A stretch of 53,725 nt of DNA. Origin: Bacilli bacterium (GTDB lineage: Bacteria; Bacillota_I; Bacilli_A; RF39; UBA660). The translations under genes and the position numbers were made by a program. The stretch covers positions 1 to 53,725 of the forward strand of contig JAGALD010000018.1 of assembly GCA_017625395.1 (NCBI GenBank), written 5' to 3'. The notes below the pieces were generated by a model that saw only the letters and a program-made list of their open reading frames with translations, had not been told where the DNA came from and did no database searches. Of the stretch, positions 3,264 through 51,215 are shown piece by piece. Positions within the stretch are counted from its first letter, which is position 1. Each line of letters opens with the position of its first letter.

Positions 3264-4304
3264 ATGAAGAAAAACCTAGGATTATATCTTTTTTTTGTTT
3301 CGATTTTCTTAATTGTTTTTGGAATTGTTATGATATATTCTTCTTCTAGTATATGGGCAGAATATAAGTTTGATGATCCTTTTAAATATGTTAAACAACA
3401 GTTTTTGTTTGGAGTTATTGGAATAGTATTAGTATATATTATTAGTAAAATAAATTATAGATTTTATTACAATAATGCAACAAAATTATTTTTTGTTTGT
3501 ATTGTTTTATTAATACTCGTTTTAATTCCTGGTATTGGTAGTGTTAGAAATGGTAGTAGAAGTTGGTTTGGTATTGGTCCATTTGGAATTCAACCTAGTG
3601 AGTTTGCTAAACTTTGTTTAATTATATTAACAAGCAAATATTTATCTAAATCAAATAAGTTTGTTAAAGATATTAAAAAGGGTGTTATTCCTATATTAGG
3701 AGTGTTATTCTTAGTATTTGGTCTTATTATGTTACAACCTGATTTTGGTACTGGTATGATAATTGTTGTTAGTATAATTGCTATGTTGTTTATTGCAGGA
3801 GTTAATATTAAGTTTTTTATAGGATTGGGTTTGATTGGCGTTGTTGGCATTGTTGTTTTAATAGTTATTGCACCTTATAGAATGGATAGAATAACTTCAT
3901 TTATTGATCCATGGAGTGATCCTTTGGGAACTGGTTTTCAAATAATTCAATCTCTTTATGCAATTGGACCTGGCGGACTTTTAGGAATGGGTTTTTTGAA
4001 TTCAAGACAAAAACAATTTTATTTACCAGAACCCCAAACAGATTTTATTTTTTCTATTATAAGTGAAGAATTTGGAGTTTTGGGTGTTACAATTGTCTCT
4101 GGACTTTTTCTAGCACTTTTATATTTAGGTATTAAAATAGCTATTAATTGTACAGATAATTTTGCTAAGTTTTTATCTTTTGGTTTAATTTTTCAAATGT
4201 TAATTCAAGCTGCTATGAACTTGATGGTTGTTATTGGACTAATTCCTGTTACTGGTATTACATTTGTGTGGGAGAAAATTAAAAAAGTGCGTTTTTCCTT
4301 TTAA
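3264..4304 (+). CDS. spoVE: SEDS peptidoglycan polymerase, SpoVE-like; 5' part interrupted by the ICE at codon 331
   Basis: IWAEYKFDD, RNGSRSW, IQPSEFAK, QPDFGT, DPLGTGFQIIQSLYAIGPGGL, YLPEPQTDFIF, GLIPVTG match B. subtilis SpoVE as I recall it; the [10 protein letters not shown] motif is absent and replaced by an element-derived tail ITFVWEKIKKVRFSF. Confidence 0.85.
   Translation: MKKNLGLYLFFVSIFLIVFGIVMIYSSSSIWAEYKFDDPFKYVKQQFLFGVIGIVLVYIISKINYRFYYNNATKLFFVCIVLLILVLIPGIGSVRNGSRSWFGIGPFGIQPSEFAKLCLIILTSKYLSKSNKFVKDIKKGVIPILGVLFLVFGLIMLQPDFGTGMIIVVSIIAMLFIAGVNIKFFIGLGLIGVVGIVVLIVIAPYRMDRITSFIDPWSDPLGTGFQIIQSLYAIGPGGLLGMGFLNSRQKQFYLPEPQTDFIFSIISEEFGVLGVTIVSGLFLALLYLGIKIAINCTDNFAKFLSFGLIFQMLIQAAMNLMVVIGLIPVTGITFVWEKIKKVRFSF
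4236..4280. other. attL of the ICE (core GGT 4254-4256)
   Basis: SEDS homology ends here; the right half tattaca..tgggagaaaat is the inverted partner of attttctccca..tgtaaca at 51092-51116. Confidence 0.85.
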
Positions 4305-4473
4305 AATCAAGGGTTTGGGGGAGAATATAAAAAACTGAAAAAAGTAAAATTTAACTAAAAATAGACTTCTAAACAAAAATTAACAATTTTTTTAAAGAAA
4401 GATTGATAGGTTACAATGTTGGGAGAAACAATAAAGTTAATCGGAACTCGAAATGCAATGAAAGGATATAAAA

Positions 4474-5850
4474 ATGTTAGAATACAAGAGTAAGTATTTT
4501 ACTAAATCTTTAAGTGTATTTGGAGAACCGAAACTTTCAATAATAAATAAAATTAAGCAATATACTAATATTGATGAGAATAGTAGAATATTAATTCCTA
4601 ACTGCCAAGATGGTATATATGTATTACCATTTGCAAAAATAAGTAACAATATTGTTTGTTATGAATCAAATAAAAATTTACTAAATGGTGGAGTAATTGA
4701 TAACTTTGGTTCATTAGGTTTAGTAAAAAGATTAAAAGGTGCTAATTTAGATAAAAATGTAAAAATAAAAAAATATAATTTTTATGATGAGAAAAAAATA
4801 GCAAAATATGATTTAGTAGTAGCTATAAGAACAATTCAATTAAGAGAAAATGACAAATATTCCATTGAAAATAAATTAAATAAATTAATGTCTAGTGTTA
4901 AAGATAATGGATATTTATATCTAACATATTATATAGATGAAGATATAGAAGTTAGTGAAAATCAAATTATAAGATATAATGAAATTAAAAATAATATAGA
5001 TTTATCTAAATGGAATATTTTATATTATAGAGATAATTTTCAAAGATATACTGATCATAATTCTCATCCTAATCATATAGGAAATCATAAACATAAGATA
5101 GGTTCAATTTTATTAAAGAAAACACCTCATGTTTATAAAAAGAGAATACTTGATAGGAGATATAAATCAGCAAGTATTTATGGTGAATCAAATCAGCAAG
5201 TTTATGATTATATAAATTTATTAAAAAACGAATATGATAGAAATGTAGATGTTTTAGTAGTTGATGCTAATGATGGCAAAAATGCAATAACATTTGCAAG
5301 ATTTGGATTTAATGTTGTTTGCTATGAAGATAACAAAGTATTACTGAATGGGGGAATATATAATCATAAAAGAACGACAGGATTAAAAAAAAGAGTTTCC
5401 GATTTTTTAGTAAATGATAACATCATAATAAAAGAAAAGAATTTTTATGATATAAAAGAAATTAATAAGTTTGACTTTATATATGTTGATAGTTCATTAA
5501 ATTTAGAAAAGAATAATCACATAACACTAAAAAAGAAAGTTAGAAAATTAATGTCTAATGTAAGAGAAGGTGGCTATTTATACATCTATTATGATTTAGT
5601 ATTAAATGAGATTGATGATTATAATAATTCATATTTTCATATTGGAGAAATGCAAAAAATATTTGATTTAGAAGATTGGAAAATTGAATATATATGTGAA
5701 AGAGAAGAAAAAAATTATTGTAATTATATTTATGATAAAGATAGAAGAATAGGTTATATTTTAGCAAAGAAAAAAAGAAATAGAAGAAAACATAAATGTC
5801 ATTATACAATAGAAATTAACAATAAAATAGAATATCAAAAGGCATCGTAA
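4474..5850 (+). CDS. Protein with two tandem class I SAM-methyltransferase-like (TehB-like) domains
   Basis: Two homologous halves (VCYESNKNLLNGG / VCYEDNKVLLNGG; KLMSSVKDNGYLY / KLMSNVREGGYLY); motif I degenerate in both. Confidence 0.6.
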   Translation: MLEYKSKYFTKSLSVFGEPKLSIINKIKQYTNIDENSRILIPNCQDGIYVLPFAKISNNIVCYESNKNLLNGGVIDNFGSLGLVKRLKGANLDKNVKIKKYNFYDEKKIAKYDLVVAIRTIQLRENDKYSIENKLNKLMSSVKDNGYLYLTYYIDEDIEVSENQIIRYNEIKNNIDLSKWNILYYRDNFQRYTDHNSHPNHIGNHKHKIGSILLKKTPHVYKKRILDRRYKSASIYGESNQQVYDYINLLKNEYDRNVDVLVVDANDGKNAITFARFGFNVVCYEDNKVLLNGGIYNHKRTTGLKKRVSDFLVNDNIIIKEKNFYDIKEINKFDFIYVDSSLNLEKNNHITLKKKVRKLMSNVREGGYLYIYYDLVLNEIDDYNNSYFHIGEMQKIFDLEDWKIEYICEREEKNYCNYIYDKDRRIGYILAKKKRNRRKHKCHYTIEINNKIEYQKAS

Positions 5851-5862
5851 GATGCTTTTTTT
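5837..5862 (+). terminator. Intrinsic terminator abutting the RBS of the initiator gene
   Basis: aaaaggcatc-gtaa-gatgcttttttt, then GGAGG at 5863. Confidence 0.7.
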
Positions 5863-5874
5863 GGAGGTGGTAGA

Positions 5875-6633
5875 ATGTCGGTTTTTAAAATTGAAAAAAC
5901 AAAAGATTTTACAGTTATGAGCAATTATCATTTAAGAGATAAAAATTTAAGTTTAAAAGCAAAAGGATTATTGTCATTTATGTTAAGTTTACCTGAAGAC
6001 TGGGATTATTCATTAATGGGTTTGTGTGCTATTTGTAAAGAAAGTAGAGATGCAATAAGGTCAACTTTAAAAGAACTTCAAAAATATGGTTATCTTCAAA
6101 TAGAGAAAGTTCGTGGAGATAAAGGTTATTTTGAATACAATTATTTGATATATGAAAAACCACATTCAATAGAAAAAGAAATAAATAATCCAGATATGGA
6201 AAATCCACACCTGGATAATCCAAGTTTGGAAGAACACCCACAAATAAATACTAATAAACAAAATACTAATAACAAAATTGATAAAGATGATAAAACCATA
6301 TCATCTTTTTTTCTTGCAGAAGAACATAATATTTTAACATTGGAATTAATTGATAGGGGATATATAAATGAGAATGATACTCAAATCTTTTATTATGATG
6401 ATTTATTTAAAAAGTTATTAGAAGAAGATAATTCATATAAAGATTTATTGCAAATTATACACTATATAATTCCAAGAGTAAAAGCAAGAGATTTTAAAGA
6501 TGAAGATGGTAATCCTATTCAAAATAAATTTGGTTATTTTAAAAATGCCATTATATCAAATATTCAGAGACTTGATATTGATATTGGAGAATTATGGGAT
6601 AATGAAGGAATATTTGATGATTTAGAAAGATAA
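5875..6633 (+). CDS. Phage/ICE-type HTH replication initiator
   Basis: FTVMSNYHLRDKNLSLKAKGLLS.MLSLPEDW N-terminus; NPxxE linker repeats; ends DDLER. Confidence 0.7.
   Translation: MSVFKIEKTKDFTVMSNYHLRDKNLSLKAKGLLSFMLSLPEDWDYSLMGLCAICKESRDAIRSTLKELQKYGYLQIEKVRGDKGYFEYNYLIYEKPHSIEKEINNPDMENPHLDNPSLEEHPQINTNKQNTNNKIDKDDKTISSFFLAEEHNILTLELIDRGYINENDTQIFYYDDLFKKLLEEDNSYKDLLQIIHYIIPRVKARDFKDEDGNPIQNKFGYFKNAIISNIQRLDIDIGELWDNEGIFDDLER
6187..6231. repeat. Three 15-bp iteron-like repeats AATCCA-N4-TGGAW inside the initiator gene
   Basis: aatccagatatggaa / aatccacacctggat / aatccaagtttggaa, followed by an A-rich tract. Confidence 0.6.
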
Positions 6634-6660
6634 AAAACATTAGCTTGTTTGCTAATGTTT
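6634..6660. terminator. Hairpin between convergent genes, probably bidirectional terminator
   Basis: aaacattagc-ttgttt-gctaatgttt. Confidence 0.7.
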
Positions 6661-6720
6661 ACTACTATATCAAGAAAGTAGGGTACTGCTAATTTTACTA
6701 CTAATACTACTTAAATACTA

Positions 6721-7221
6721 CTAATTTTTTTTAGGATTAGTTAGACAATAATAAGTTGTTGCGTGTCTTAATATTATCCATGTAATTACTTGATCCATAT
6801 TTTTAGGACTTATTAAAGAACTAATACAATAATCCTTTAAAAAGTTTAATTGTATTGGTAATTGAATACTTCTTTCGTTTGCACCGATTACTTTTTGAAC
6901 TAAATCATCAGCAACCAAGTCTCCTTCAGAAACAATACAATCATCTTGTTCATCATCTTCAAAATCTGCAAAGAAGTCAGTTATATCATCAACTTCTCTT
7001 GCAATTTCTTTGAATTTTTCGTTTGTATAAATTGGTTTTAATAATTCAAGATATTTATTAAGCAAATTTTCTAATACAATATCTTTTTCATTGTCAGGTA
7101 ATCCTTTTAAGTCTTTTATAAGACCATTTAATTCATAATGGTATTCTATACCTCTAATTTTTTTTATTTTGTTTTCCATGTTTTCATGGATAGATACTAC
7201 ATAGTCATTAATATTTTTCAT
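6721..7221 (-). CDS. Hypothetical acidic protein
   Basis: 166-aa ORF with AAGGAG RBS on the minus strand; the only convincing minus-strand gene. Confidence 0.7.
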   Translation of the reverse strand: MKNINDYVVSIHENMENKIKKIRGIEYHYELNGLIKDLKGLPDNEKDIVLENLLNKYLELLKPIYTNEKFKEIAREVDDITDFFADFEDDEQDDCIVSEGDLVADDLVQKVIGANERSIQLPIQLNFLKDYCISSLISPKNMDQVITWIILRHATTYYCLTNPKKN

Positions 7222-7386
7222 TTTTAGCTCCTTTTCTTTTCTTAAAATAAAACCTACTTTCTAGCACTACCATTCGTCAATTATTTTCCTTATTACACAA
7301 TATAATGTAGATAACTTACTACATAGTTGGTATGGTTTAAAATTATTAAACTTATTACAATAGTAGTAAGTTATAGGAAGGATGTG

Positions 7387-7647
7387 ATGATTATTAAATA
7401 TAACTTACGAGCTCGTAAGATTTTAGCAAATAACATAATATTTTTCCGATTAGAAAATGAGTGGTCGCAAGAAGATTTTGCAGATAAACTTGGGACAACT
7501 CCTACTTATGTTTCGACACTTGAAAATGCTAAAAGAAATACGAGGATTGATTACATAGGTCACATAGCAGATACTCTTGGTGTTTCTATCGAACAATTAT
7601 TTAAAGAAAGACCAAAAGTTAAAAATCATCGAATACCTAGACGATAA
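7387..7647 (+). CDS. XRE HTH regulator resembling R-M controller (C) proteins
   Basis: WSQEDFADKLG...YVSTLENAKRN; start moved to follow the AGGAAGGA RBS. Confidence 0.8.
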   Translation: MIIKYNLRARKILANNIIFFRLENEWSQEDFADKLGTTPTYVSTLENAKRNTRIDYIGHIADTLGVSIEQLFKERPKVKNHRIPRR

Positions 7648-7781
7648 GAATATATAATTATTCTTTTTTTGTGCCATTTTTATTATAACACGAAAAAATT
7701 TATTTTGAATATTAGTTTGCGTTAAAATGTGGCTATTTTAAAATTGATTAGGTGTCATAATAGATATAGGTAGGTGAGAAT

Positions 7782-8090
7782 ATGGCTATAAATAGTTTTG
7801 AAACTTTACAAAATAAATTGTCAAGAGTCAATGTTGATGAAATGTATGCTACTATTTGTAGTAACATAAAGAAATATCGTTTAGAAAAATACAACGAATT
7901 CAAAAGCAAAAACTCACAAAGTACTATTAATCCTTACTCAACTGAGAATGTTGCTGCTCTTTTAGATTATAATCATAATCATTATAAAAGATTTGAAAGT
8001 GCAAGTGATAGTACAAAAAGAATACCATTAAATAAGTTAGCAAAGATATCTATTATTTTAGATAAAACTATTGATGAACTAATGAAATAG
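7782..8090 (+). CDS. XRE-like HTH protein
   Basis: NIKKYR...STENVAALLD...YKRFE...LAKISIILD; AGGTGA RBS. Confidence 0.65.
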   Translation: MAINSFETLQNKLSRVNVDEMYATICSNIKKYRLEKYNEFKSKNSQSTINPYSTENVAALLDYNHNHYKRFESASDSTKRIPLNKLAKISIILDKTIDELMK

Positions 8091-8249
8091 TTGGTATTTG
8101 ATTATTTATTTACTTATGAAAGATAGAAAAATGAGTGTAGCTATCTTTTTATTTTGCATTTAAAAGGGAAAAAATCCCACTTTGTAAAGAAAAATGTCAA
8201 TTTTTGTAGTATAATAATTATGGATGTCTTTACAATAGGGAGTGATAAT

Positions 8250-9959
8250 ATGGAAACAACAAATCTTTCAAAAATTAAAAGAGAAAAAATGTTATACACT
8301 ATAAATGAAATAAAAAAGAATATAACTGACGAAGAAACTTTAAATAATTTATCTTTAATAGAAAATGAATTAACAAAAAAGAAATATGGTTTAGTTTGGG
8401 AAGAACATATAGAGAAAGTAGATATGGATTTGATAAATCAAATACCTACTTTTGAAGAAGTGAAAAATAAAGAAATATTTTCATCAAAAGATGAATGTTT
8501 TAATTTTTTAATAGAAGGAGATAATTTACATAGTTTATATTTATTAGAAAAGACACATAGTAAAAGAATTGATTTAATATATATAGATCCGCCATATAAC
8601 ACAGGTAACAAAGATTTTGTATATTCAGATGATGCAGTAGATCTTGAAGATGGATTTAGACACTCTAAATGGTTGTCTTTTATGGCAAATAGATTGAAAA
8701 TAGCTAGACAATTATTGAGTGAGCGTGGTGTTATATTTATTAGTATTGACGACAATGAACAATCACAATTAAAATTATTATGTGATGAAATATTTGGTAG
8801 TGAGCATTTTTTAGGATTAATAACAGTTGTTGGGAACCCACGAGGTAGAGATTATGGTGGAATTGCCAAAATGAATGATTATTTGATAGCATATTCTAAA
8901 ACTTCTAATTATGTTTTAAACAAAATAGAAGATGAAGAACATAAATTCAAAACAATTGATGAATATGGTGGTTTTGAATTAAGAGAATTAAGAAATCGTA
9001 ATATTAAGTTTAATGATAAAAATCGACCAAATTTATGTTATCCATTTTATGTTAATCCAAATAATAAAGATGAACATGGCTTATTAGAAATATCTTTAGA
9101 ACCACATGAGGGATTTATTGAAGTAATGCCTGCAATGTCTCAGGGTATACAAACGGTATGGAGATGGGGAAAGGAAAAATCTCTAAAAAATCTTAATATT
9201 AACATTAAAGGTAAACCAATGAAAGAAAAAAATCGATACATGATAGTAGAAAAATATCGTGACGAAAAAGTTATGCCAAGAAGCGTATGGTGGGATAAAA
9301 ACACTAATACCGAGAAAGGAACACTTTTATTAAAAGAAATACTTGGTGATAAAAGTTTTGATTATCCTAAACCAGTAGAGTTAATTCAAAGAATATGTGA
9401 AATGGGTACAGATAAAGAAAGCATTGTTTTAGATTTTTTTGCAGGTTCTGGAACAACTGGTCATGCAGTCATGGAATTAAATAAAAAAGACGGTGGTAAT
9501 AGAAAATTTATTTTGTGTACAAATAATGAAAATAATATTTGTGAAAATGTAACATATAGAAGATTAAATAATATAATAACTGGTTATGAAAACTCTAAAA
9601 AAGAACATATAAAAGGATATAATAATATAAATTTAAAATATTATAAGACATCATGTATTCCTAAAGTAAATGATGATAATAATAATCTAAAAGAAAATTT
9701 AATGAAGAATATAGTTAATTTAATTCAATTAGAAAACGGAATTAAAGTTGATAATTCTACAATTTGTGTATTTTTAGATGAAGAAGAATTAGATAAATTT
9801 TCATTATGTAAGGATAAATTAGATAATTGTCAAAAGATTTATATTTCATCAGATATATTATTAACTTCAACAGAAGAAAAAATATTTGAGGAAAATAATA
9901 TTAAAGTATATGTTATTCCTGAATATTATTTTGCAGATGAGATTATGGAGGTAGCATAA
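8250..9959 (+). CDS. mod: Type III R-M methyltransferase (Mod)
   Basis: YGLVWEEH, IEGDNL, YIDPPYN, HSKWLSFM, PKPVEL, DFFAGSGTTG; start refined by GGGAGTGA RBS. Confidence 0.92.
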   Translation: METTNLSKIKREKMLYTINEIKKNITDEETLNNLSLIENELTKKKYGLVWEEHIEKVDMDLINQIPTFEEVKNKEIFSSKDECFNFLIEGDNLHSLYLLEKTHSKRIDLIYIDPPYNTGNKDFVYSDDAVDLEDGFRHSKWLSFMANRLKIARQLLSERGVIFISIDDNEQSQLKLLCDEIFGSEHFLGLITVVGNPRGRDYGGIAKMNDYLIAYSKTSNYVLNKIEDEEHKFKTIDEYGGFELRELRNRNIKFNDKNRPNLCYPFYVNPNNKDEHGLLEISLEPHEGFIEVMPAMSQGIQTVWRWGKEKSLKNLNINIKGKPMKEKNRYMIVEKYRDEKVMPRSVWWDKNTNTEKGTLLLKEILGDKSFDYPKPVELIQRICEMGTDKESIVLDFFAGSGTTGHAVMELNKKDGGNRKFILCTNNENNICENVTYRRLNNIITGYENSKKEHIKGYNNINLKYYKTSCIPKVNDDNNNLKENLMKNIVNLIQLENGIKVDNSTICVFLDEEELDKFSLCKDKLDNCQKIYISSDILLTSTEEKIFEENNIKVYVIPEYYFADEIMEVA

Positions 9960-12151
9960 TGCAAGGTATCAAATTAAAAGAATTCCAAATTGATGCAGTA
10001 AACAAATTACTAGATGCTACATCTGTAGGAAATAAAAAAGAAGTATTAGTCCAAGCTCCAACAGGAAGTGGAAAAACAATTATATTGTTATCATATATTG
10101 AAGAATTCTTAAAAGAAGATAAAAAAACAATATTTGTATGGTTAACCCCTGGTAAGGGAGATTTAGAAGAACAAAGTAGAGATAAAATGTTAAGATATTT
10201 ACCGACATTAGAATCTAAAAATATTCAGGATGTTTTATTACAAGGGTTTGATAGTAAAGATACAGCATTTATCAATTGGGAAACAATTACAAAAAAAGGT
10301 AATACAGCATTGAAAGATGCAGAACGAAAGAATTTATATGAAAGAGTAACTGAAGCTCACAATAAAGGTTATGAATTTATTGTAATTGTAGATGAAGAAC
10401 ATTTGAATAAAACAATAAAAGCTGAGGCAATAATTGAATATATGAACCCTAAATATATTGTTAGAGTTAGTGCCACTACAAAAGTTAATAAAGAAGCAGA
10501 ATATATAGAAATTGATGAGTTAAGTGTAATAAATGAAGGATTAATTACTCGTGCTTTATACATAAATGAAAATGTATCTAATCAAGATGTTTTATCAAAC
10601 GAACACGAGTATCTTTTAGAACTTGCTATTAATAAAAGAAAGACAATCAAAGAAGAATACATAAATAAAAATATACAAGTTAATCCATTAATTATTATTC
10701 AAGTGCCAAGCAAATCCGATGATTTAATATTGCAAATAGAAACTATATTAAATGAAAAAGGTTATTCATATGATAGAAACAATTTAGCAATATGGTTAGC
10801 AGATAGAAAAGAAAATATTGATAATATAGAAAATAATGAATCTCATCAAGCAATATTAATAATGAAACAAGCAATATCTACTGGATGGGATTGTCCAAGA
10901 GCAAAAATTCTAGTTAAACTTCGTGATAATATGAGTGAAGATTTTGAAACTCAAACCATTGGTAGAATTAGAAGAATGCCACAAGCAAAACACTATGACA
11001 ATGTATTGCTAGATAATTGTTATCTTTATACCTTTGATGAAAAATATGAAGAAACTATAAAACAAGAATTAGGAAATAATGCCAAAGATACAAAGGTTAT
11101 ATTTTTAAAAAATGAATTTAAAAGTCTATCTTTAAAGAAAATTAATTTTGATAGTAATTTTGATGGATTTGACGAAAGACAAACATTTAATATATTGCAT
11201 AAGTATTTTGTAGATAAATATAATTTAGGAACTTCAAAGAAAAATAATAAAACAAATTTGGAGGCAAATGGTTATAATTTCAAAAATACAATTGAAAGTA
11301 GTATTGTTCAAGGTAAGGTTGTACGATTAGATGAAATTCAAGATGCCGATCGTATTAAAGTTGAATCGATAGTTAATACAAATAAAAATGGTTTTGAATT
11401 AAGATATTCAATAAATATTATTTCATCAAGAATAGGTATGAGATATGATAGAACAAGATTAATGTTAGAAAGAATGTTTTTAAAAAGTAAATTATTCTCT
11501 AAAAAGTTTGTTGATTTAACTATTCCTGAATTTTATGCTTTTGTAATAAATAATGAAGAATTATTAAAACACGATTTTCAAGAAGCAGTATCTCAAAAAG
11601 CAAGACAAATGAAATTAAAACTTGAAGAAGTTAAAATAACTGATTGGAAAGTACCAGAGATGGATTATATAAAATATGATCCAAAGATGAAAGATACTCA
11701 AATTTATAATAAATCAATTTATATGAATTATCCTAATAGTACAATTAAATCAAAATCTGAGAGAATGTTTGAAAAGTATTGTGAAAATAGTGATAATATA
11801 AAATGGTTTTACAAAAATGGAGAATCAGCAGAATCATATTTTTCAATAGTATATGTAGATGCAGTTAACAAAAAATGGCATTTCTATCCTGATTTTATTG
11901 TATGTGATAAGAATAATAAAATTTGGATAATAGAAACAAAAGGTGGAGAGAGTACATCTGGAGAATCTAAAAATATTGATATGAAAGTAGAAAATAAATT
12001 TGAAGCTTTGAAGCAATATTCTAAAGAGTATAATGTCAATTGGGGATTTGTAAGAGATTATGATAAAAACGAATCATTATATTTATGTAATACTGAATAT
12101 ACAGAAGATATGGAAAATGATAATTGGATTAATCTTGATGAAGTATTTTAA
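9959..12151 (+). CDS. res: Type III R-M restriction subunit (Res)
   Basis: APTGSGKT, DEEH, GWDCP, QTIGRIRR; C-terminal PDF..IETK nuclease; 1-nt overlap with mod. Confidence 0.92.
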   Translation: MQGIKLKEFQIDAVNKLLDATSVGNKKEVLVQAPTGSGKTIILLSYIEEFLKEDKKTIFVWLTPGKGDLEEQSRDKMLRYLPTLESKNIQDVLLQGFDSKDTAFINWETITKKGNTALKDAERKNLYERVTEAHNKGYEFIVIVDEEHLNKTIKAEAIIEYMNPKYIVRVSATTKVNKEAEYIEIDELSVINEGLITRALYINENVSNQDVLSNEHEYLLELAINKRKTIKEEYINKNIQVNPLIIIQVPSKSDDLILQIETILNEKGYSYDRNNLAIWLADRKENIDNIENNESHQAILIMKQAISTGWDCPRAKILVKLRDNMSEDFETQTIGRIRRMPQAKHYDNVLLDNCYLYTFDEKYEETIKQELGNNAKDTKVIFLKNEFKSLSLKKINFDSNFDGFDERQTFNILHKYFVDKYNLGTSKKNNKTNLEANGYNFKNTIESSIVQGKVVRLDEIQDADRIKVESIVNTNKNGFELRYSINIISSRIGMRYDRTRLMLERMFLKSKLFSKKFVDLTIPEFYAFVINNEELLKHDFQEAVSQKARQMKLKLEEVKITDWKVPEMDYIKYDPKMKDTQIYNKSIYMNYPNSTIKSKSERMFEKYCENSDNIKWFYKNGESAESYFSIVYVDAVNKKWHFYPDFIVCDKNNKIWIIETKGGESTSGESKNIDMKVENKFEALKQYSKEYNVNWGFVRDYDKNESLYLCNTEYTEDMENDNWINLDEVF

Positions 12152-12156
12152 ATGTT

Positions 12157-12183
12157 AAACAGGTTTATATAACCTGTTTTTTA
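12157..12183 (+). terminator. Terminator of mod-res
   Basis: aaacaggtt-tatat-aacctgtttttt. Confidence 0.8.
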
Positions 12184-12212
12184 TTGAAAAAAATGTCGAA
12201 CTTTGTTATACT
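12184..12212 (+). promoter_or_regulatory. SigA-type promoter
   Basis: TTGAAA-17 bp-TATACT with extended TG. Confidence 0.65.
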
Positions 12213-12217
12213 TTAAT

Positions 12218-12317
12218 AGTAGCAAACGCTACATTAAACCATTTTACTTTGCCGACATCAATCCTTCGATGTTGCAAACTTTTATAATAGTTGCTAGTAC
12301 AGGACTATTATTTTTTT
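12218..12317 (+). ncRNA. Candidate ~100-nt small RNA
   Basis: Lies between the promoter above and a terminator (ataatagt..actattat-T7); two internal hairpins; no RBS or ORF. Confidence 0.5.
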
Positions 12318-12510
12318 GTAAGTTTACATTTTTCTTATATTTAATTTTAGACAAGAAGTTCCAATTAATTTAAAAAAATGTTATAATAAATATAGATAAA
12401 TAGCAGTACATTATCTTTTTTAGGTGTGTACTGCTTTTATTTTTTGTGAAATTAATTTTAGTATTTGTATGTGAAGTATATGCAGTAAAGTAGTAAGAAG
12501 GGAGCAGAAA

Positions 12511-12828
12511 ATGCAAAAGGAGAACTTTGTATATAATAAAACATACAATAAGTATGGGAAAGTAGTACTTACTTTGGATAAAATGCTAGAAAAGAGAAAT
12601 ATGAAACCATATAGATTAAGTATTTTAACAGGAATTAATTGGGGAATTATCAAGAAATATGTTAGAGGTGATTTATATAGGGTTGATTTAGACTTATTAG
12701 CTAAAATATGTTTTGCATTAAATTGTTCATTAAGTGATATAATACATTACGAAGAAGAAAGAACCATCCAAAGAAAAAATCAAGAAAAAGATATGAAAAA
12801 TACAAGAAAAATGTTAAATAAAGTATAA
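12511..12828 (+). CDS. Cro/C1-type HTH regulator (YozG-like)
   Basis: LDKMLEKRNMKPYRLSILTGI...LAKICFALNCSLSDII. Confidence 0.8.
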   Translation: MQKENFVYNKTYNKYGKVVLTLDKMLEKRNMKPYRLSILTGINWGIIKKYVRGDLYRVDLDLLAKICFALNCSLSDIIHYEEERTIQRKNQEKDMKNTRKMLNKV

Positions 12829-13180: not shown

Positions 13181-13199
13181 TTTTCTAGGAGGGTTTTAT

Positions 13200-17906: not shown

Positions 17907-17916
17907 AAAGGATTAT

Positions 17917-41820: not shown

Positions 41821-41843
41821 CATTATAAAAGGAGGGGAATATT

Positions 41844-44800
41844 TTGAATAAAAAGTTTGAAGAAGATTTTATTGAAACAAGAGATGAAAGTTTAAATAAA
41901 ACATTAGATAATAAAATTAATTGGAATAAATTTTTAAATTATTGGTCAAAAATACTTGATAGTTATAGCGTTGATAATATCTTAAATTTATATTCATATA
42001 ATTCTTATGGAAAAATATTTCATACTTTTGATGAATGGAATAATGATGAAATAGATAGAAGAATAAAACCTAAAAGTAAGGGAATACCAATACTTATAGA
42101 TGATAAAAAGGTTTATGTATTTGATATAAAGCAAACATACGGAAAAGAATATAATCAATGGAATTATAATCATTTAATAGATTTGGAAACATTGAGTTAT
42201 TATCAAGATAAATATCAAGTACTAAATGATTCAGAAATTAATATAAATGATAATTTTTATAATGTGTTTTATGAAATCTCAAAATCACAATTGAATAATG
42301 ATTATTTAAGTTTAAATAATAATGAAGTGGAGTTTATTGCTAATACAATGACTTCACTTTTTTTATCAAAAATAAATTTTAATATTTATAATTATGATCA
42401 TAGTTTTGAATATACAAAAGAATTAGATGAAGATGATATATTAAAATGTATGCAAGTTGTAAATAAAGAAACTGCAATTATATACAAAGATTTTATGAAA
42501 AATGCAATTGCTTTAGAGCGTATTCATTCTAATATTAAAGATACAATTATTCAACAATATAAAGATAATGAATTTATGCCAAATAGTGATAGAGAAGGTT
42601 ATCTTCAAACTATAGAAAAAAATACAGGTTATGATTATGATTTAATAGATGGAATTTATAATAATTTATTAAGTAAGTACTCATATATAAAACCAAAAAA
42701 ATTATATATGAGATTTAATACTGAAAAAGAAGTTGAACAATTTGTTGATGATAGAGTAGAGGTAGAGGAAAAAGAACCCAAACAATATAAAAATAGTGAT
42801 AATGAACAATTATCATTGTTTGAGTCGAGAGAAGAAACTTTAGCTAATAAAATATGTGATATTTTTAATTCTTTTGATACAAAATATCGAAATACTTTTA
42901 GTGTCCGTAAGGTGGAACTTCAAAGATGGGAACATATTTCAAGTAAAAAAAGAAATTTAACAATACTTTTAACAAGTCCTTTAGCAGATGATATGGGAGA
43001 AAATAGTTTTAGTTATTTTAATACTGATAAAACTGATGAAATAAAACTAAATGATGGAATTATTAATAATTATTTTTTAAATAAATTAAATAAAGACAAA
43101 GATTTTGATATTTTATTTAGTCCTAGTATTATACATATATATTGGCATAACTTTGATAGTAAAGAATTTGACCTTAATATACCAAGTACAAAGTTAGTAG
43201 ATGAAAATGATCTTGATAATCAAATGTTAGAAGAAATAGATAAAGAAGTTTCTTCTATTACTGATAATGAAATTGATTATAAAGTAACTACTGCAGAAAT
43301 TATTCCAACTCGTTCAGGAATTGAAACAAATGTTATTGAAGAACATTCTTATAATAAAAATGGAATAGAATTAGAAGAAAAATATCCTAAAATAAATTAT
43401 CATATTAGTGATAATAGGGTTGATACAACTTTTGGTGCTAAATCAAGATTTGATGATAATGTCAAAGCAATAGAACTTTTAAAGCAACTTGAATTAGAAG
43501 ATAGAAATGCAACAAAAGAAGAACAAGATATATTATCTCGTTATGTAGGTTGGGGTGGAATTTCTGATGCTTTTGATGAAAGAAAAGATAATTGGGAAAA
43601 AGAAAGAAATCAATTAAAAGAATTATTATCTGAAAAAGAATATAAAGATGCTTCTCATTCTACTTTGTCATCTTTTTATACTCCTAATATAGCAATAGAT
43701 GGAATATATAATGCTTTATCAAAGTTCGGTTTTGAAAAAGGAAATATTTTAGAACCTAGTTGTGGTATTGGAAATTTCTTTGGAAGATTACCAAATGAAT
43801 TTGAAAAGAGTAAATTGTATGGTATAGAACTTGATAGCATAAGTGGTAGAATAGCAAAAAAATTATATCCTAATGCAAAAATAGAAATTAATGGTTATGA
43901 AGAATCTAAAATAAATGATAATCTATTTGATGTAGCTATTGGTAATGTTCCTTTTGGTAGTAATACTATATATGATAAAAGATATAAAGATAAGTTTTTA
44001 ATTCACGATTATTTCTTTCAAAAAACTTTAGATAAAGTTAGAAGTGGTGGAATTATTGCTTTTATAACTACTGATGGAACACTTGATAAAAAGAATACAA
44101 GAGTAAGAGAATATATAGCAAAAAGAGCAGAGTTTTTAGGTGCAATAAGATTACCTAACAATACATTTTCAGGAAACGCTAATACAAAGGTTACATCAGA
44201 TATTATTTTCTTAAAAAAGAGAGATGAATTAAAACTAGATGTAAGTGATGAAAATTGGATTTATACAAGTGAATATGATGATGGAATAACAATTAATAAT
44301 TATTATATTGATAATCCTGAAATGATGCTCGGTAAAATGGGATTACAAAGTTCACAATTTGGTGGATTTGATAATACCTTAAATCCTATTGATGAAGATA
44401 TAAAAGTTTTAATGAATAATGCTATATCTAAATTACCTAGTGAAATATATACTCAAGTTGCTTATGAAGTTAATGATAATAATAGTGAGTATGAAATATT
44501 AGAAGTTGATGATAATGTTAAAAATAATGCTTTTGTTATAGTTAATAAAAATAATAAGGATATTATATATCAAAGACAAGATTCTAATTTAGTACCTTAT
44601 GAAATTCAAGATGGAATGGTAGCAAAAAGAATTATTGGTTTATGTAAAGTTAAAAATGCTTTAAGAAAAGTATTTGATATTCAATTACAAGATGGAACTG
44701 ATGAAGAATTATTAGTAGCACAAAATGAATTAAGTAAAGAATATGATGAATTTATAAAAAGATATGGCTATATAAATGATAGTGTTAATGCTAGAGCATT

Positions 44801-47800
44801 TGATAATGATCCAGATTATTATTTACTTACTTCTATTGAAAATAAAGTTAGTAGAGATGAAGAAAATGAAAAACCTATATATGAAAAGGGAGATGTCTTT
44901 ACTAAAAGAACAATAAGAAAAAGTAAAGAAGTATCAAATGCTGATAATGCAGAAACAGCTTTGAGATATTCTTTAAATAATCGTGGTTGTGTAGATATTG
45001 AATATATGAAAACAATCTACAATAAAACTGATGAGGAAATAATTGAAGAATTAGATACACTAATATATCAAGATCCTTCAAAGATACATGACTTTAATAA
45101 TGGTTGGGTAATTGCAAGTGAATATTTAAGTGGTAATGTAAAACAAAAACTTAATTATGCTAAATCAGTTAATATAGAAAATAAGTATGATAAAAATATT
45201 GAAGCATTGGAAAAAGTACAACCTATACCACTTGAATATGATGAGATAAGTGTAAAGTTAGGTAGTACTTGGATACCAGAAGATGTATATCATCAGTTTT
45301 GTGTAGAACTTTTAGATATACCAAGATGGAATCAAAGTCATTTGAAAATTAAATATGCAAAAGAAATAAATAGTTGGTTATTTCAAGCAAGTGGCTTATA
45401 TGGATATGGTATTAAAAATACTAATACTTGGGGAACTGATAGAGCAGATGCTTTATCTATAATAAAAAACACTTTAAATCTTCAAAGCATAACTATATAT
45501 GATAAATTAGAAGATGAAAGAAGAATAGTTAATCCAGTAGAAACTGCAAATGCTAGAGAAAAACAAGAACTTATAAAACAGGAGTTTAAAGAGTGGATTT
45601 GGAAAGATGAAGAACGAAGAAATAGACTTGTAAAAATATATAATGAACAATTTAATTGCATGAGAGAAAGAGAATTTGATGGAAGTCATTTAACATTTGA
45701 TGGAATGAATCCAACTATAAATCTTCGTCCACATCAAAAAGATGCAGTTGCTCGTGTTTTATATGGTGGTAATACTTTACTTGCTCATGCAGTAGGTGCT
45801 GGAAAAACTTATGAATGTATTGCAAGTGCTATGGAATTAAAAAGATTAGGAATAGTTAGTAAACCAATGTTTGTAGTACCAAATCATTTATTAGGACAAT
45901 GGGCTAATGAAATTTTAAAATTATATCCCACTGCAAATATATTGGTAGCTACTCAAAAAGATTTTGAAAAAACTAGACGAAAAAAATTAATGGCAAAAAT
46001 TGCAACAGGAGAATGGGATGCGGTTTTGATTGCTCATTCTAGTTTTGGATTAGTACCTATGAGTAGAGAGTATGAAAAAAGACATATAGAAAATCAAATA
46101 GATGAAATAGTAGAGGCAATAGAAAGAATAAAAGCAGAATCTAATGAAGGTTTAAGTGTAAAAAAATTAGAACAAATAAAAACTAGTATGGATACAAAAT
46201 TAAAAACTTTATTAGATAGTCCAAAAGATGATGTAGTAACATTTGAAGAATTAGGAATAGATGAGTTAATAGTAGATGAAGCACATATGTTTAAAAATTT
46301 ACCCATGTTTTCAAAAATAAGAAATGTAGCAGGAATAAATAATTCAGAATCTAAAAAAGCAACTGACTTATTTATGAAAATAAGTTATATATTAGAAAAT
46401 AATGGTGGCAAAGGTGCAGTATTTGCAACTGGTACTCCTATATCAAATTCAATGGGAGAATTATTTGCTATGCAAAAGTACTTACAACTTGATAGATTAA
46501 GAGAAATGGGATTAGAACATTTTGATGAATGGGCATCAACTTTTGGAGAAGTAGTTAATAGTTTTGAAATTGCTCCTGATGGTAGTGGTTTTAGAACAAA
46601 AGCAAGATTTGCTCAATTCTTTAATATTCCTGAACTTATGACATTATTTAAAGAAGTTGCAGATATTAAAACTTCAAAAATGTTAGATTTACCAGTACCA
46701 AAGTTAAAAGGTGGAGATTATAAAACAATAGTTGCTCCAAAAAGTAATGAATTAGGAGAGTATGTAGATAAATTAGCAGAACGAAGTGAAATCATAAGAA
46801 ATGGTTGTGATCCTAGAGTTGATAATATGTTATTGGTTACTAATGATGGAAGAAAAGCAGCACTTGATTTAAGAATGATAGATCCAAATATGCCAGACTT
46901 ACCTAATTCAAAAATAAATATGGCAGTAGAAAACATTTATAAAGTATGGTTAGAAAATAAAGAGGACAAGTTAACACAACTTGTTTTTTGTGATTTATCT
47001 ACACCTAAAAATGATGGAACCTTTAATGTTTATGATGATATTAAGAATAAATTAATTCAAAGGGGAATACCTGAAGAAGAAATTGAATTTATTCATAATG
47101 CTAAAACTAATCCACAAAAATTAAAACTATTTGAAGATATGAGAAATGGTACTAAACGAATACTAATAGGTTCAACATCTAAAATGGGTGCAGGTATGAA
47201 TGTTCAAGATAAATTAATTGCTTTACATCATTTAGATTGTCCATGGAGACCAAGTGATATAGAGCAAAGAGAAGGAAGAATATTAAGACAAGGAAATCAA
47301 AACGAAGAAGTTGAAATATATAGATATGTAACTGAAGGAAGTTTTGATGCTTACTCTTATCAATTAATTCAAACTAAATCTACTTTTATAAATCAAATAA
47401 TGGCAAATAGCAATGGTAGTGGAAGAACTGCAGAAGATTTAGATAGAGATACACTTACTTATGCAGAAGTTAAAGCTCTTGCTAGTGGGAATCCGTTAAT
47501 ATTAGAAAAGTTTAAAGTAGAAAATGAATTGAAACAATTATATTTATCTAAAAGTAGATATGATAAATCTCGTATAGAATTAGAAAGTAAATATAATAGA
47601 GAATTACCTAGACAATTAAAATATCAAGAAAGTTATTTGAAAGGTTTACAAGAAGATATTACCAAAGTAGTTGATTTATCTGCAGATAACTTTAATATAG
47701 TAATTAGGGAACAATATTATAATTCAAGAAAAGACGCAAGTACTAAATTTTATCAATCTTTATCGTTGTTAAAAACAGGAGAAGAAACAAAAATAGGAGA

Positions 47801-48164
47801 AATAAGTGGTTTCGATATTATTGGTACTAGAGAAGAATTGAGATATACTCCTGTTGTTTGGATAAAAGGTTCAGGAAAATATAAAGTTGAAATAAATAAC
47901 ATTGATGAAATAGGTAATATTATTAAATTAGAAAATATGTTAAAAAGTTTCGAAAATAAAATAAACACTGTAACCGACCAAATTGCATATACAAAAAAAC
48001 AACTTGATGATACAAAAGAAGAACTTGATAAACCTTTCACTAGTGCAGATAGAATTAAAGAATTACAAAAAGAAAAAGCAAGAATTGATAGTGAATTGGA
48101 TTTGGATAAACAAGAATTAAATGTCGATATGGAAGAAGATAAAGGTCAAGAATTATCACAATAA
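41844..48164 (+). CDS. DarB-like N6-adenine MTase / SNF2 helicase with ArdC-like N-terminus
   Basis: [50 protein letters not shown]; TTG start with GGAGG. Confidence 0.88.
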
Positions 48165-48358
48165 AATAAATTTAATTTTTTTCATAAAACTACTTGCAAA
48201 AATTCCTTTTTTAAGTGATAAATGGAACGAAGGGAAAACGCTATTAAATATGTCTAATTTGAATAATATACACTTTAAAGACGGCTTTCAATCATATACT
48301 TGTATAAAAAAATTAAATTGTTCAAATGGGCTTAAAATAGCAAAGGAAGGAGTATGAT

Positions 48359-48583
48359 ATGAAAGAGTTGAACATCAATAAAGATTTTATGTTATGGTTT
48401 TTAGAAATTGTCGAAAACATAATAGTAGATAGCATTGAAGATAATCCGACAAAATTTCCTACATTCCTTGCTGTAAATGAATTGATAAACAAACTAAATT
48501 TAGAAGAAGGAGTTAACATTTCTAATGTAATAGGAGAATTAACAACTAATAAAATTTTTGAAGAAGTAAAAAATAATATATAA
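48359..48583 (+). CDS. Hypothetical protein
   Basis: 74 aa; AAGGAG RBS. Confidence 0.6.
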   Translation: MKELNINKDFMLWFLEIVENIIVDSIEDNPTKFPTFLAVNELINKLNLEEGVNISNVIGELTTNKIFEEVKNNI

Positions 48584-48599
48584 GAGGGAGAGATGAAAG

Positions 48600-49130
48600 A
48601 TGTATATTACAGATAGTACTGAAAATGTTAGAGAATTAATTGAAAAGTTAGAAGAAATTAAAGACATAAGTAAAATGAGATTCTTACTATATATATTTAA
48701 TTCTTTAAATAATAATTTGATTAACAATAAAAATGAAGTTAATCCTAACTTGGTGGAAGATCCTGATTTAGTTATATTTAATTTTCCATCAATTGGTTTT
48801 GCAGATAACTATATTACTATTTTCTTACAATATAATGTTATGGTATATAATGTATTCTGCAAACAAAACAAAATAGTAAGTGAACTAGACGCTTATGAAG
48901 ATGAAGGCAATGTATATGGAGTAGAATATGATGAGGAAGATAAAGAATTAATAACTTTATTTGAAAAATTATCTTTTAAAGAAAAATTAGATATATTTGG
49001 AGAGATAGTTATAAGGTATGATAATGAAACATACTTTAAGGAAAGAATAACAATGCTTACATTTGATTCTGATAGAAGTGGTTATGACATAGCAAAATTA
49101 ATAAAGGATTTTAAAAACAATAATAAATAA
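48600..49130 (+). CDS. Hypothetical acidic protein
   Basis: 176 aa; GGGAG RBS; followed by a terminator. Confidence 0.7.
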   Translation: MYITDSTENVRELIEKLEEIKDISKMRFLLYIFNSLNNNLINNKNEVNPNLVEDPDLVIFNFPSIGFADNYITIFLQYNVMVYNVFCKQNKIVSELDAYEDEGNVYGVEYDEEDKELITLFEKLSFKEKLDIFGEIVIRYDNETYFKERITMLTFDSDRSGYDIAKLIKDFKNNNK

Positions 49131-49142
49131 AAATAAAACAAG

Positions 49143-49174
49143 AAAGCTCAATGCAAAATGTGTTGAGTTTTTTT
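49143..49174 (+). terminator. Intrinsic terminator
   Basis: aaagctcaatgc-aaaat-gtgttgagttttttt. Confidence 0.7.
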
Positions 49175-49223
49175 GTTGCATAAATTTATATAATTCTTAA
49201 TAAGTTTTAGAGGAGGCAGATAC

Positions 49224-49385
49224 ATGGAGATGAACAATAATTTAAACTTAAATTACAATATTAAATTAAATTACGATTCAAATGGTAAAGATTTATATCA
49301 AATTATAAAAGAACATTTTTTAATATATATAAAAGAATTAAAAAAAGATAAAGAAAATCAAAAAAATGTTAATCAGAAACAATAA
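49224..49385 (+). CDS. 53-aa ORF, candidate recombination directionality factor
   Basis: AGGAGG RBS; MEMNNNLNLNYNIKLNYDSNGKDLYQIIKEHFLIYIKELKKDKENQKNVNQKQ; directly upstream of the recombinase. Confidence 0.55.
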   Translation: MEMNNNLNLNYNIKLNYDSNGKDLYQIIKEHFLIYIKELKKDKENQKNVNQKQ

Positions 49386-49464
49386 AAGTGACACCAAAAT
49401 ATGTTATAATTAATATAGCATTAAGAGTTTCCGATTAACATATTTTATAGGAGGGAAATAAGTT

Positions 49465-51045
49465 ATGAGGAAATACAAATGTGGTGATTATTTAAGGTTA
49501 TCAAAAGAGGACTTATTAAAAAAAGACGAGAGTACTTCAATTGAAAGTCAAAGAATGATTATTGAATCATTTTGTAAATATCATAACCTAGAACTTGTAG
49601 AAGAATATGTTGATGACGGATACTCTGGTGGTAATTTTGAAAGACCTGGATTTAAGAGAATGATTGAAGATATAGAATCAGGAAAAATAGATTGTATATT
49701 AACAAAAGATTTTTCGAGATTAGGTCGTGAGTTATACCAAACAGGTTCATTTATTGAAGATTACTTCAATGAAAAAGGTGTAAGATATATTGCAATAAAT
49801 GATGGTTATGATTCTCTTGAAGGAGATAGTATGATTTCAATGAAATTAACCTATAACGACTATACATTAAGAGATACATCGAAAAAGGTTAAATCAGCAT
49901 TTACTGCTAGACAAAAAAAAGGAGAGTATATTGGCTCAATTCCAAAGTATGGTTACTTGAAAGATCCAACTGACCATCACAAATTAGTTATAGACCCAAT
50001 TGCGTCATTAGTTGTTAAAAGAATTTTTAAAATGGCGTATGCAGGGAATAGTTGTTATAAGATAGCTAATATTTTAACTCTTGAAAAAGTTCCAATTCCA
50101 ATAATATATAAGAAAGAAACTAGAGGGGCAGTAATTACTGAAAATGATGGTTATGGAATTTGGAGACCTCAAACAATAAGAAGTATCTTAACAAGTGAAA
50201 TGTACTTAGGTCATATGGTTCAAAATACTTTCAATAAGATTAGATACAATTCAAAAAGAGTTAGAGCAGTAAAAAAAGAAGATTACATTATAGTTGAAAA
50301 TACTCACGAACCAATAATTGATAAAGAAATTTTTGATAAAGTAAATAAAGTGTTGAAAGCAAATTCAAAGACGGTAGAAAAGAATAAAGACAGATATTTA
50401 TTTAGTGGATTATTAAAATGTAAAGAATGTGGTCATACGATTAGCATTTTAGAAAGAAAGAATAAAGGAGATAAATCTCATTATACTCAATGCAATCAGT
50501 ATAGTAAAAAAGGAAAGTATGGAATATGCAATATCCATAGATTAAACTATAATCTACTAGAAGATGACTTGGTATCGGTTATTACTGATATATGCAAATC
50601 GTTTATTAAAGAATATGATGGTAAATCACTAACCGAAGAAGCAAATGCAATTTTGAATGAAGAAACAATTGAATTACAAAAACAAATAGATGTCTTTATA
50701 AAAGAAATAGCAAAATATAATACTGCTATTGAACAATTATATATGGATAAAGTACAAGGGAAGATTCCTGAAAATATATTTGCTAATTTACTTGATAGAT
50801 ATAATAAAGACTTAAATAATGCAACCACTCAAAAAAATGAATTAGAAAAAGATAAGATTAAAATGTTATCTAAAATAGAAAGTTTAGATTATGATGCTTG
50901 TGCAGAAATAGTAAAGAAGTTTTTATCATCTAAACATCCTACTCGTGCAATGATAGTTGAATTAATAGATAGGATAGAAATTGATAATGATAAAAATGTA
51001 AATGTATTTTTTAGATTTCAAGAACTTTCTAGTTATGTAAGGTAA
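49465..51045 (+). CDS. Large serine recombinase (integrase)
   Basis: YLRLS, DDGYSG, RPGF, DFSRLGR; recombinase domain; Zn ribbon CKECG..C..C; coiled coil; ends about 70 bp from attR. Confidence 0.95.
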
Positions 51046-51091
51046 TTTTTTTTAAAAGTTATTCATCTCCCATGAAAAAGCAACCTCAAAT

Positions 51092-51140
51092 ATTTTCTCC
51101 CATAAAACTTGTAACAGGTGTTACACTTCCTTTTCTTTCG
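51092..51140. other. attR of the ICE (core GGT 51117-51119)
   Basis: attttctcccataaaacttgtaaca-GG-tgttacacttcc; SEDS coding resumes here. Confidence 0.85.
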
Positions 51141-51215
51141 TATGGTGGAAGTAGTTTACTTATAAGTATGATAAGTATTGGGATTTTATTAAATATTTCG
51201 GATACTGCTAACTAA
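51117..51215 (+). pseudogene. spoVE: Detached 3' end of spoVE (32 codons plus stop)
   Basis: [32 protein letters not shown]: the universal SEDS C-terminal motif and last TM helix. Confidence 0.92.

Follow-up and report, generated by a model that had tools for sequence, protein, structure and literature searches.

An integrative conjugative element splits a spoVE-type sporulation gene in an uncultured gut Bacilli lineage and is a candidate for excision during sporulation

Contig JAGALD010000018.1 of the Bacilli bacterium assembly GCA_017625395.1 (GTDB lineage Bacteria; Bacillota_I; Bacilli_A; RF39; UBA660) was analysed over its whole length of 53,725 nucleotides, here called the window, and positions refer to it unless another contig is named. 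The window carries a SEDS gene that is split at codon 331. Judged by its sequence, the gene behaves as spoVE and its occupant is an integrative conjugative element (ICE) with a large serine recombinase (LSR) at its edge. We consider it fairly probable that the ICE is excised by its own LSR during sporulation and that this would restore the gene. SpoVE is a SEDS glycosyltransferase, and the SpoVE of B. subtilis makes the spore cortex in the mother cell.

The split gene and its occupant

The host assembly (G000) comprises 1.49 Mb in 110 contigs with a GC content of 26.7%, and the window is the whole of its contig C82. The SEDS open reading frame (ORF, 3264..4304) keeps to its family through CCT GTT ACT GGT, where the last triplet (4254-4256) is codon 331, and then runs through 15 unrelated, element-encoded residues to a stop. 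The last 31 codons of the gene begin again at position 51117 in the same orientation, 46,863 bp further on (51117 - 4254). PF01098 matched the 5' part with 336.9 bits at profile positions 4-329 of 356 and the tail with 40.1 bits at positions 322-354, above the gathering score. With the spoVE model TIGR02615, the N-terminal part covered positions 3-326 of 354 and the 32-aa tail positions 326-353, and the two pieces abut on the profile.

When both pieces were joined in silico, an open frame of 362 aa was obtained, in which the motif containing PFLSYGGSS is regained. The rejoined product is identical in 362/362 residues to protein P0001, which is found on 2 contigs of a public collection (the longest with 21,325 bp and so shorter than the window), and an uninterrupted allele therefore exists. 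In five sister species the gene is intact with 82-87% identity and reads unbroken across the insertion site, and the rejoined genes were open in 27/27 cases. A protein truncated at codon 331 lacks the invariant PFLSYGGSS block and ends before the last transmembrane helix. A replacement 3' end provided by the element was ruled out, as merely 15 unrelated residues stand past the junction and the Pfam match ends at position 329 of 356. The initial annotation had placed the break at codon 331 and the remainder 46,863 bp away, had predicted a 362-aa join and had claimed that the element supplies no 3' end of its own; all of these coordinates hold, and the halt of the PF01098 match confirms the last point.

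A relaxase, a coupling protein, a VirB4-type ATPase, an integrase and att sites are all present on one chromosomal insert (Table 1), and a pilin-like protein is also among its genes. The LSR contains its three domains in order at residues 9-154, 180-299 and 312-372, and its gene reads towards attR and the 3' fragment. The N-terminal YxRLSxED motif, which we take to hold the catalytic serine, is invariant in 7/7 aligned relatives. When the element ends were joined, an imperfect palindromic attP was formed. Its outer arms (51093-51102 and 4269-4278) lie symmetrically around the GG, and each is the exact reverse complement of the other. An imperfect palindrome around the crossover dinucleotide is the typical look of an LSR attP. 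The conjugation genes, the LSR at the edge and the palindromic attP identify the insert, as far as its sequence tells, as an ICE whose own serine recombinase carried out the integration. The full ICE with a serine recombinase that the initial annotation had described was thus found with its relaxase, coupling protein, VirB4-like ATPase and LSR.

The best-named NCBIfam relatives of the recombinase are CcrB with 135.4 bits and XisF with 114.8 bits. These scores are far below the respective cut-offs of 900 and 375, so the recombinase belongs to neither family. In Anabaena, XisF excises the fdxN element developmentally, in a terminally differentiated cell type.

Identity of the split gene

The highest score for the 5' part was obtained with the spoVE model (TIGR02615, 385.4 bits), followed by ftsW with 353.3 and rodA with 273.3 bits. 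Three SEDS genes were found in the host genome: the split gene, an FtsW-like gene that adjoins tsf (C3, 278.9 bits) and a RodA-like gene (C91, 249.1 bits). Both paralogs share about 35% identity with the split gene, and a quick IQ-TREE tree places them well apart from the orthologs, with branch lengths of 7-9 changes per site. The tree contained no named SpoVE, FtsW or RodA references, and none of the 120 best homolog clusters came with a source name. A second copy of spoVE was not found in the host genome.

The host carries spo0A, spoIIGA with an adjoining sigE-like gene, a sigK-like gene, spoVAC/spoVAEB and spoIVA. The separate ftsW and the spo0A, sigE and sigK genes to which the initial annotation had pointed are represented by the FtsW-like and RodA-like paralogs, spo0A and the sigE-like and sigK-like genes. 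Neither a host without sporulation genes nor a second intact spoVE, which had both been set against its reading beforehand, was encountered.

In a phyletic survey of 40 relatives, genes with at least 50% identity were counted as orthologs. An ortholog was present in 23 of the 40, together with SpoIVA in 22/23 and SpoIIGA in 23/23. In the 17 relatives without an ortholog, SpoIVA was found in 2 and SpoIIGA in 2, and other SEDS paralogs were retained. The spoVD ortholog is located 2-3 kb upstream of the split-gene ortholog in 7 relatives, and in one of them (G005) mraY was confirmed between the two. A gene order of this kind, with spoVD, mraY and spoVE, is present in B. subtilis. By family models, paralogs, phyletic pattern and gene context, the split gene behaves as spoVE, and by analogy to the B. 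subtilis SpoVE it may be specific for the mother cell.

Upstream of the spoVE start (3219-3256), the motif G[AC]ATAT[TA] is followed after 14 nt by TATAAGATATAAT and a ribosome-binding site, and this arrangement was seen in 6/6 close relatives. The first box resembles the sigmaE -35 consensus.

Further elements in sporulation genes

The recombinase was searched for in one genome per species, and 6 loci with 70-90% identity were confirmed. The SEDS tail starts 80-100 bp past the recombinase stop in 6/6 loci. In four of the six genomes the 5' gene part lies 6.5-9 kb upstream, and the occupants there are therefore small elements. They have in common with the ICE the 458-aa left-end ORF, a replication-initiator-like gene, the ~110-aa accessory protein (kept at 45% identity) and the recombinase. 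A second survey covered 301 evenly sampled genomes of the order; a recombinase homolog at E <= 1e-120 was present in 15 of them, and 12 loci were fetched. The same SEDS tail was located directly downstream of the recombinase in 11 of the 12, at 47-76% identity; the exception is one recombinase with 46% identity that is not directly followed by this tail. With G000 and its relative G001 included, 13/301 genomes are occupied at codon 331, one partial recombinase being left out. The total amounts to ~18 distinct genomes, as one of the eleven probably duplicates the record of a locus from the first search. For the empty and occupied sites that the initial annotation had suggested looking for among relatives, the surveys yielded the five sister species and these ~18 genomes, respectively. 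The recombinase lineage is dedicated to the codon-331 site. With this recurrence and the palindromic attP, the match between the two gene pieces is no accident.

Directly upstream of the recombinase, a homologous ORF of 44-67 aa was observed in 8/8 codon-331-type elements examined, without a match to any family. Position and size make the 53-aa protein of the ICE a candidate recombination directionality factor. The box before the recombinase reads TGTTATAAT or TGTTATACT in 6/7 aligned elements and TATTATAAT in the seventh, locus L028. The record of this locus is titled uncultured Muribaculaceae MAG (metagenome-assembled genome). It shows a Firmicute-type spoVE with a 6.5-kb element and a recombinase 90% identical to that of the window, and the bin label is probably wrong for the contig. 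The codon-331 element of G001 is related to the ICE: its left-end genes are the same, and it carries an adhesin, a coupling-protein-like gene and, with 64% identity, a recombinase. At least 9 of the 12 clusters that are not intact at the site, among the 120 best SpoVE homolog clusters, stop or diverge right after PVTG and continue with other element-encoded tails.

A second element was found in spoVE at about codon 238, where the ortholog is split in the GPGG motif between YAIGPG and GLLGMGF in six species (G001, G003, G005, G008, G015 and G016). G007 is probably split there too, and its contig ends at this point. The insert of 3.6 kb encodes a helix-turn-helix (HTH) protein, an unknown 276-aa protein and a serine recombinase of 409-499 aa, which abuts the 3' fragment and is 33% identical to the ICE recombinase. 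A group II intron or an intein was ruled out by this gene content. In the SpoVE tree (quick IQ-TREE), all six fall into a single clade (SH-aLRT 98). Their recombinases are mutually 50-75% identical, and G015 and G008 are a sister pair in both trees. This fits one old insertion that was vertically inherited. For the rejoined gene of the clade, dN/dS was 0.046-0.162 in 15 pairs with saturated dS values of 1.0-2.4. In the sister clade, where the gene is unsplit in five of six members and the sixth is G000, dN/dS was 0.043-0.109. A gene that was split through speciation and yet is under purifying selection must be put back together, and this constraint is the strongest indirect evidence for a restorative excision of LSR elements in spoVE. 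Both elements are present in G001, where spoVE is in three pieces (C14:16412-21050, C37:16046-17796) with two unrelated recombinases.

The host genome has 12 LSR genes, several of which are at contig ends. A spoVD-type penicillin-binding protein gene on C11 (13-6627) is in two pieces, broken inside the transpeptidase domain. The pieces cover profile positions 4-356 (359.8 bits) and 346-636 (334.6 bits), and their sum of 694 compares with a SpoVD cut-off of 688. They are separated by a 4.6-kb element with GNAT, GATase and DUF5655 genes and a 531-aa serine recombinase that abuts the 3' piece. A spoVD truncation of equal length was observed in seven relatives (G002, G004, G010, G013, G003, G022 and G024), and the gene is open with 635-667 aa in 15 others.

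The yabG gene on C36 (29531-82152) is likewise split, with profile positions 1-123 and 108-280 lying ~51.8 kb apart and two tandem serine recombinases adjoining the 3' piece. Its insert is a second ICE with a VirB4-like ATPase, a coupling protein, a relaxase (132 bits) and an adhesin. Compared with the spoVE ICE, the adhesin is 54%, the SNF2 protein 46%, two cargo genes 76-77% and the recombinase 34.5% identical, which characterises the yabG ICE, by sequence comparison, as a mosaic relative. A gene for a PemK/MazF-type toxin is located just inside this element, beside the recombinases (L052:7733-8101).

For spoIVA, residues 1-121 end contig C97 (22829-23191) and residues 361-491 begin contig C74 (1-393), and residues 122-360 are absent from the host assembly. 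The break at residue 121 was also found in G004, G010 and G021. In G010 the N part of SpoIVA is mid-contig (C8/C32), and a 534-aa recombinase is directly upstream of the C part. The spoIVA gene of the host is probably split by an LSR element as well. The phenomenon is wider than the initial annotation had seen, since several sporulation genes and a second site in spoVE are affected. The LSR genes on C43, C48, C15, C98, C40, C84 and C56 were matched to no split gene.

The remaining genes of the spoVE ICE are listed in Table 1. No other van genes were seen in the ICE beside its VanY-type gene. Two fragments at 17225-18288, one of a sortase (164 aa, profile positions 1-60 of 125) and one from the N-terminal part of a resolvase (132 aa), are probably left over from older insertions.

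Table 1. Coordinates of the split gene, the att sites and the genes of the element in the window
Feature	Position	Strand	Remarks
spoVE 5' part	3264..4256	+	codons 1-331; integrated ORF continues to 4304 (346 aa)
attL	4231..4278	.	host half-site ends GG 4254-4255; element half-site has TGGGAGAAAA at 4269-4278
Integrative conjugative element (by sequence)	4257..51118	+	GG crossover dinucleotides 46,863 bp apart; GC 24.6%
Left-end ORF, 458 aa	4474..5850	+	no Pfam or PHROG match; 56% identical homolog at left end of the 9-kb element of G043; present in G001
Replication-initiator or DnaD-like HTH protein	5875..6633	+	HTH_36; PHROG replication initiation families; 62% identical homolog in G043
Type III-like restriction-modification pair, N6/N4 methylase and Res helicase	8154..12151	+	PF01555 129.5 bits; PF04851 66.6 bits
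Surface adhesin, thioester domain and six SpaA repeats	14527..17283	+	PF17802 254.7 bits; PF08341
Single-strand DNA-binding protein	18285..18683	+	PF00436 30.5 bits
VirB4-like conjugation ATPase	21891..24398	+	PF19044 TraG P-loop; DUF87
M23 peptidase, likely cell-wall hydrolase of the transfer apparatus	24583..25512	+	PF01551 60.5 bits
~110-aa accessory protein and MobA/VirD2-type relaxase (26475-27842)	26150..27842	+	PF03432 31.1 bits, cut-off 24.6
Type IV coupling protein	29096..31057	+	PF02534 198.8 bits; PF12696 99.1 bits
Three XRE-type HTH regulators	34289-35170, 36988-37716, 37815-39470	+	flank the acyltransferase_3 and VanY-type genes
acyltransferase_3 gene	35170-36159	+	ICE cargo between XRE regulators
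VanY-type D-Ala-D-Ala carboxypeptidase gene	36172-36837	+	ICE cargo between XRE regulators
Y-family DNA polymerase	39855..41375	+	PF00817; PF11799
SNF2-type helicase protein, 2106 aa	41844..48164	+	PF00176; PF00271; 46% identical homolog in the yabG ICE
53-aa ORF, candidate recombination directionality factor	49224..49385	+	homologous ORF upstream of recombinase in related elements
TGTTATAAT, extended -10-like box before the recombinase gene	49402..49410	+	candidate promoter element by sequence
Large serine recombinase (LSR), 526 aa	49465..51045	+	Resolvase 81.2 bits; Recombinase 76.5 bits; Zn_ribbon_recom 42.3 bits
attR	51093..51141	.	element half-site has TTTTCTCCCA at 51093-51102; GG at 51117-51118
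spoVE 3' part	51117..51215	+	begins GGT GTT ACA CTT CCT TTT CTT TCG TAT GGT GGA AGT AGT, ends TAA

Proposed excision during sporulation and its alternatives

We propose that at integration the LSR of the element would join attP with attB at the GG dinucleotide and that SpoVE would be truncated before PFLSYGGSS and the last transmembrane helix in this state. The truncation might be tolerable because spoVE would not be needed for growth. During sporulation, the LSR, probably directed by the upstream 53-aa protein, would recombine attL with attR in the mother cell. The precise excision of the ICE would restore the 362-aa gene, and the forespore would retain the integrated copy. The same recombination unit could serve the ordinary excision and integration upon transfer. 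In the lineage as a whole, spoVE (at two sites), spoVD, yabG and probably spoIVA are split in a like manner. Developmental excision gains strong indirect support from the recurrence at the site, from the second element under purifying selection and from the splitting of spoVD and yabG.

Several observations weigh against an excision in sporulation. We know of no observation of sporulation in this lineage, which is uncultured. Reading by eye for sigmaE and sigmaK boxes brought no recognisable promoter to light in front of either the 53-aa ORF or the recombinase. A scan for sigma-70 promoters at 48100-51400 gave 16 matches, compared with a mean of 25.6 in shuffled sequence. The junctions were also searched for in the assembled Logan contigs of 4 runs, using the window positions 3000-6000. 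Contigs of three runs bridged attL (X4 record 10 with 0 differences, X5 record 22 and X8 record 30); according to the records these runs are animal gut metagenomes, goat included. No excision product was observed, as among the Logan matches listed there were only attL-bridging pieces and no loose end at 4256. Logan contigs drop rare variants, and this result speaks neither for nor against excision. In metagenome contigs, the degenerate 23-nt motif comprising all four att forms matched 37 loci, all in ordinary SEDS genes of other organisms or in unrelated DNA. Neither an attP nor an exact match to attL or attR was among them, and the scan is uninformative. The purifying-selection test covers the codon-238 element and not the ICE of the window.

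A different explanation is that the conserved codon block of a growth-dispensable SEDS gene serves the ICE as a safe attB. It would then be excised for transfer alone, outside any developmental programme, and its carriers would be cortex-defective or would rely on a rare stochastic excision. We regard this as possible but doubtful. It is in line with a recent horizontal spread: in four hosts with SpoVE proteins 60-77% identical to that of G000, the recombinases are 99-100% identical to each other, which indicates that the small element is spreading horizontally now, and intact flanking fragments could simply reflect a recent insertion. Intact and occupied alleles also occur side by side in the genus: of the 120 best homolog clusters, 12 lack an intact site and the other 108 have one. 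P0001 shows that an ICE-free strain or cell exists. The lack of a recognised sporulation promoter and the contigs with the integrated form only point in the same direction. However, this reading would leave one genome with four inactive mother-cell sporulation genes, although every fragment seen is open. Inactivation also does not explain the codon-238 element, which was inherited through speciation with a dN/dS of 0.05-0.16 for the split gene. In addition, recombinases that have diverged to 47% identity are still found at the same codon.

It is improbable that the gene is an FtsW-type paralog, vegetative or redundant, with a truncated protein that is active or dispensable and a merely coincidental link to sporulation. 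In favour of this reading, the curated spoVE cut-off of 448.8 was missed with ~424 bits (385.4 + 39.0, the pieces being scored apart). The ftsW cut-off of 337.5 was passed (353.3 + 40.5 bits), and the NCBI rule would name the protein FtsW. Moreover, in the host and its nearest kin the gene is relocated and preceded by a bPH-domain gene instead of standing beside mraY or spoVD. Yet the host possesses another FtsW-like SEDS gene by tsf and a RodA-like one, both on very long branches of the tree, and the split gene accompanies sporulation genes and was not detected in genomes where these were not detected. The spoVE model gives the highest score, and the truncation would cost the protein its invariant PFLSYGGSS block. 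The assignment to spoVE in the initial annotation stands on the top model score, the extra SEDS paralog and the sporulation-linked pattern, and it falls short of the curated spoVE cut-off.

A wrong joining of host and element DNA is scarcely credible: the assembly is of the metagenome type with 110 contigs, 93.5% completeness and 3.5% contamination, but both junctions are on one contig, the gene halves complement each other exactly, contigs of the runs X4, X5 and X8 bridge attL, and the same architecture is present in ~17 other genomes.

Excision in the mother cell could extend further, to a programme of at least four mother-cell excisions (spoVE, spoVD, yabG and spoIVA) in the spore formation of this reduced-genome lineage, two of which would release complete ICEs. 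As the mother cell is destined to lyse, it could act as a dedicated and sacrificial conjugative donor, with the spore keeping the copies. We consider this extended scheme unlikely, and a sporulation-linked activation of conjugation is speculation on our part.

Elements that interrupt sporulation genes have been described for sigK, spsM, spoVFB, spoVR, gerE, spoIVFB, kamA and yabG, and the occupants, in the accessible parts of these papers, are prophage-like elements and the non-conjugative gin (PMC4191935, PMC5595907, PMC10747680, PMC6957869, 10.1101/2022.02.25.481979). In the accessible text, a literature search came upon no element described for spoVE, spoVD or spoIVA, and supplementary tables may list more targets. 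Within this scope, the result agrees with the initial annotation, which knew of no described spoVE-interrupting ICE.

In the skin elements the recombinase is at the element edge beside the 3' fragment, as in the spoVE ICE (10.1101/2022.02.25.481979). As far as the accessible descriptions go, skin in sigK of B. subtilis and C. difficile (with the recombinases SpoIVCA and CD1231) also resembles it in its mother-cell target gene, in a precise excision that restores the frame, which for spoVE was done in silico, and in varying sizes with a conserved recombinase and site. In contrast to skin, spoVE encodes an enzyme and not a sigma factor, the occupant is a complete ICE and not a defective prophage, and its excision is predicted here. 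SPbeta in spsM, with SprA and SprB, is described as having a small gene just upstream of the integrase, and as an active element that uses one unit of attL-rdf-int-attR for its own transfer and for the reconstitution of the host gene; we liken the spoVE ICE to it. Unlike SPbeta, the spoVE element is conjugative and not viral, and its 53-aa ORF resembles no family, so that a directionality role is suggested by position and size. The gin element in gerE of B. cereus ATCC 10987 is, in the parts consulted, a non-phage element with three serine recombinases, and the yabG ICE has two in tandem. Its authors describe gin as lacking conjugation genes, whereas a relaxase, a coupling protein and a VirB4-like ATPase are encoded by the spoVE ICE. 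In C. botulinum V73, yabG is reported to be split by a serine-recombinase element, the yin prophage, as it is split in G000, where the occupant is a ~51.8-kb ICE and not a prophage. That an ICE can reside in a sporulation gene through a phage-type recombination unit was demonstrated, as described in the accessible text, with an engineered ICEBs1 carrying the SPbeta unit (PMC6957869). This was a laboratory construct, whereas the case presented here is natural and occurs twice in one genome.

By its position inside a sporulation gene, the recombinase at its edge and a frame that can be restored in silico, the spoVE ICE is assigned to the sporulation gene-intervening elements of the skin, SPbeta and gin class. 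Programmed rejoining is known for regulators and for coat or surface genes that are split by prophage relics. New here would be that the cortex synthase pair SpoVE/SpoVD itself is split, and that natural full ICEs occupy spoVE and yabG, for which a laboratory chimera had shown the feasibility and no natural example appears in the accessible papers. Also new would be that three, probably four, interruptions occur in one genome of 1.5 Mb, and that a sister species has spoVE in three pieces. Annotation pipelines will miscall such split genes as truncated and the organisms as non-sporulating. We infer the excision, its timing in the mother cell and the directionality factor from the sequences, and making spores probably requires the cutting of elements out of the DNA in the lineage of G000. 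If the excision is developmental, it would provide a recombinase family with a defined and conserved target of 50 bp, and mobile elements would be obligatory parts of sporulation in a widespread uncultured gut lineage.

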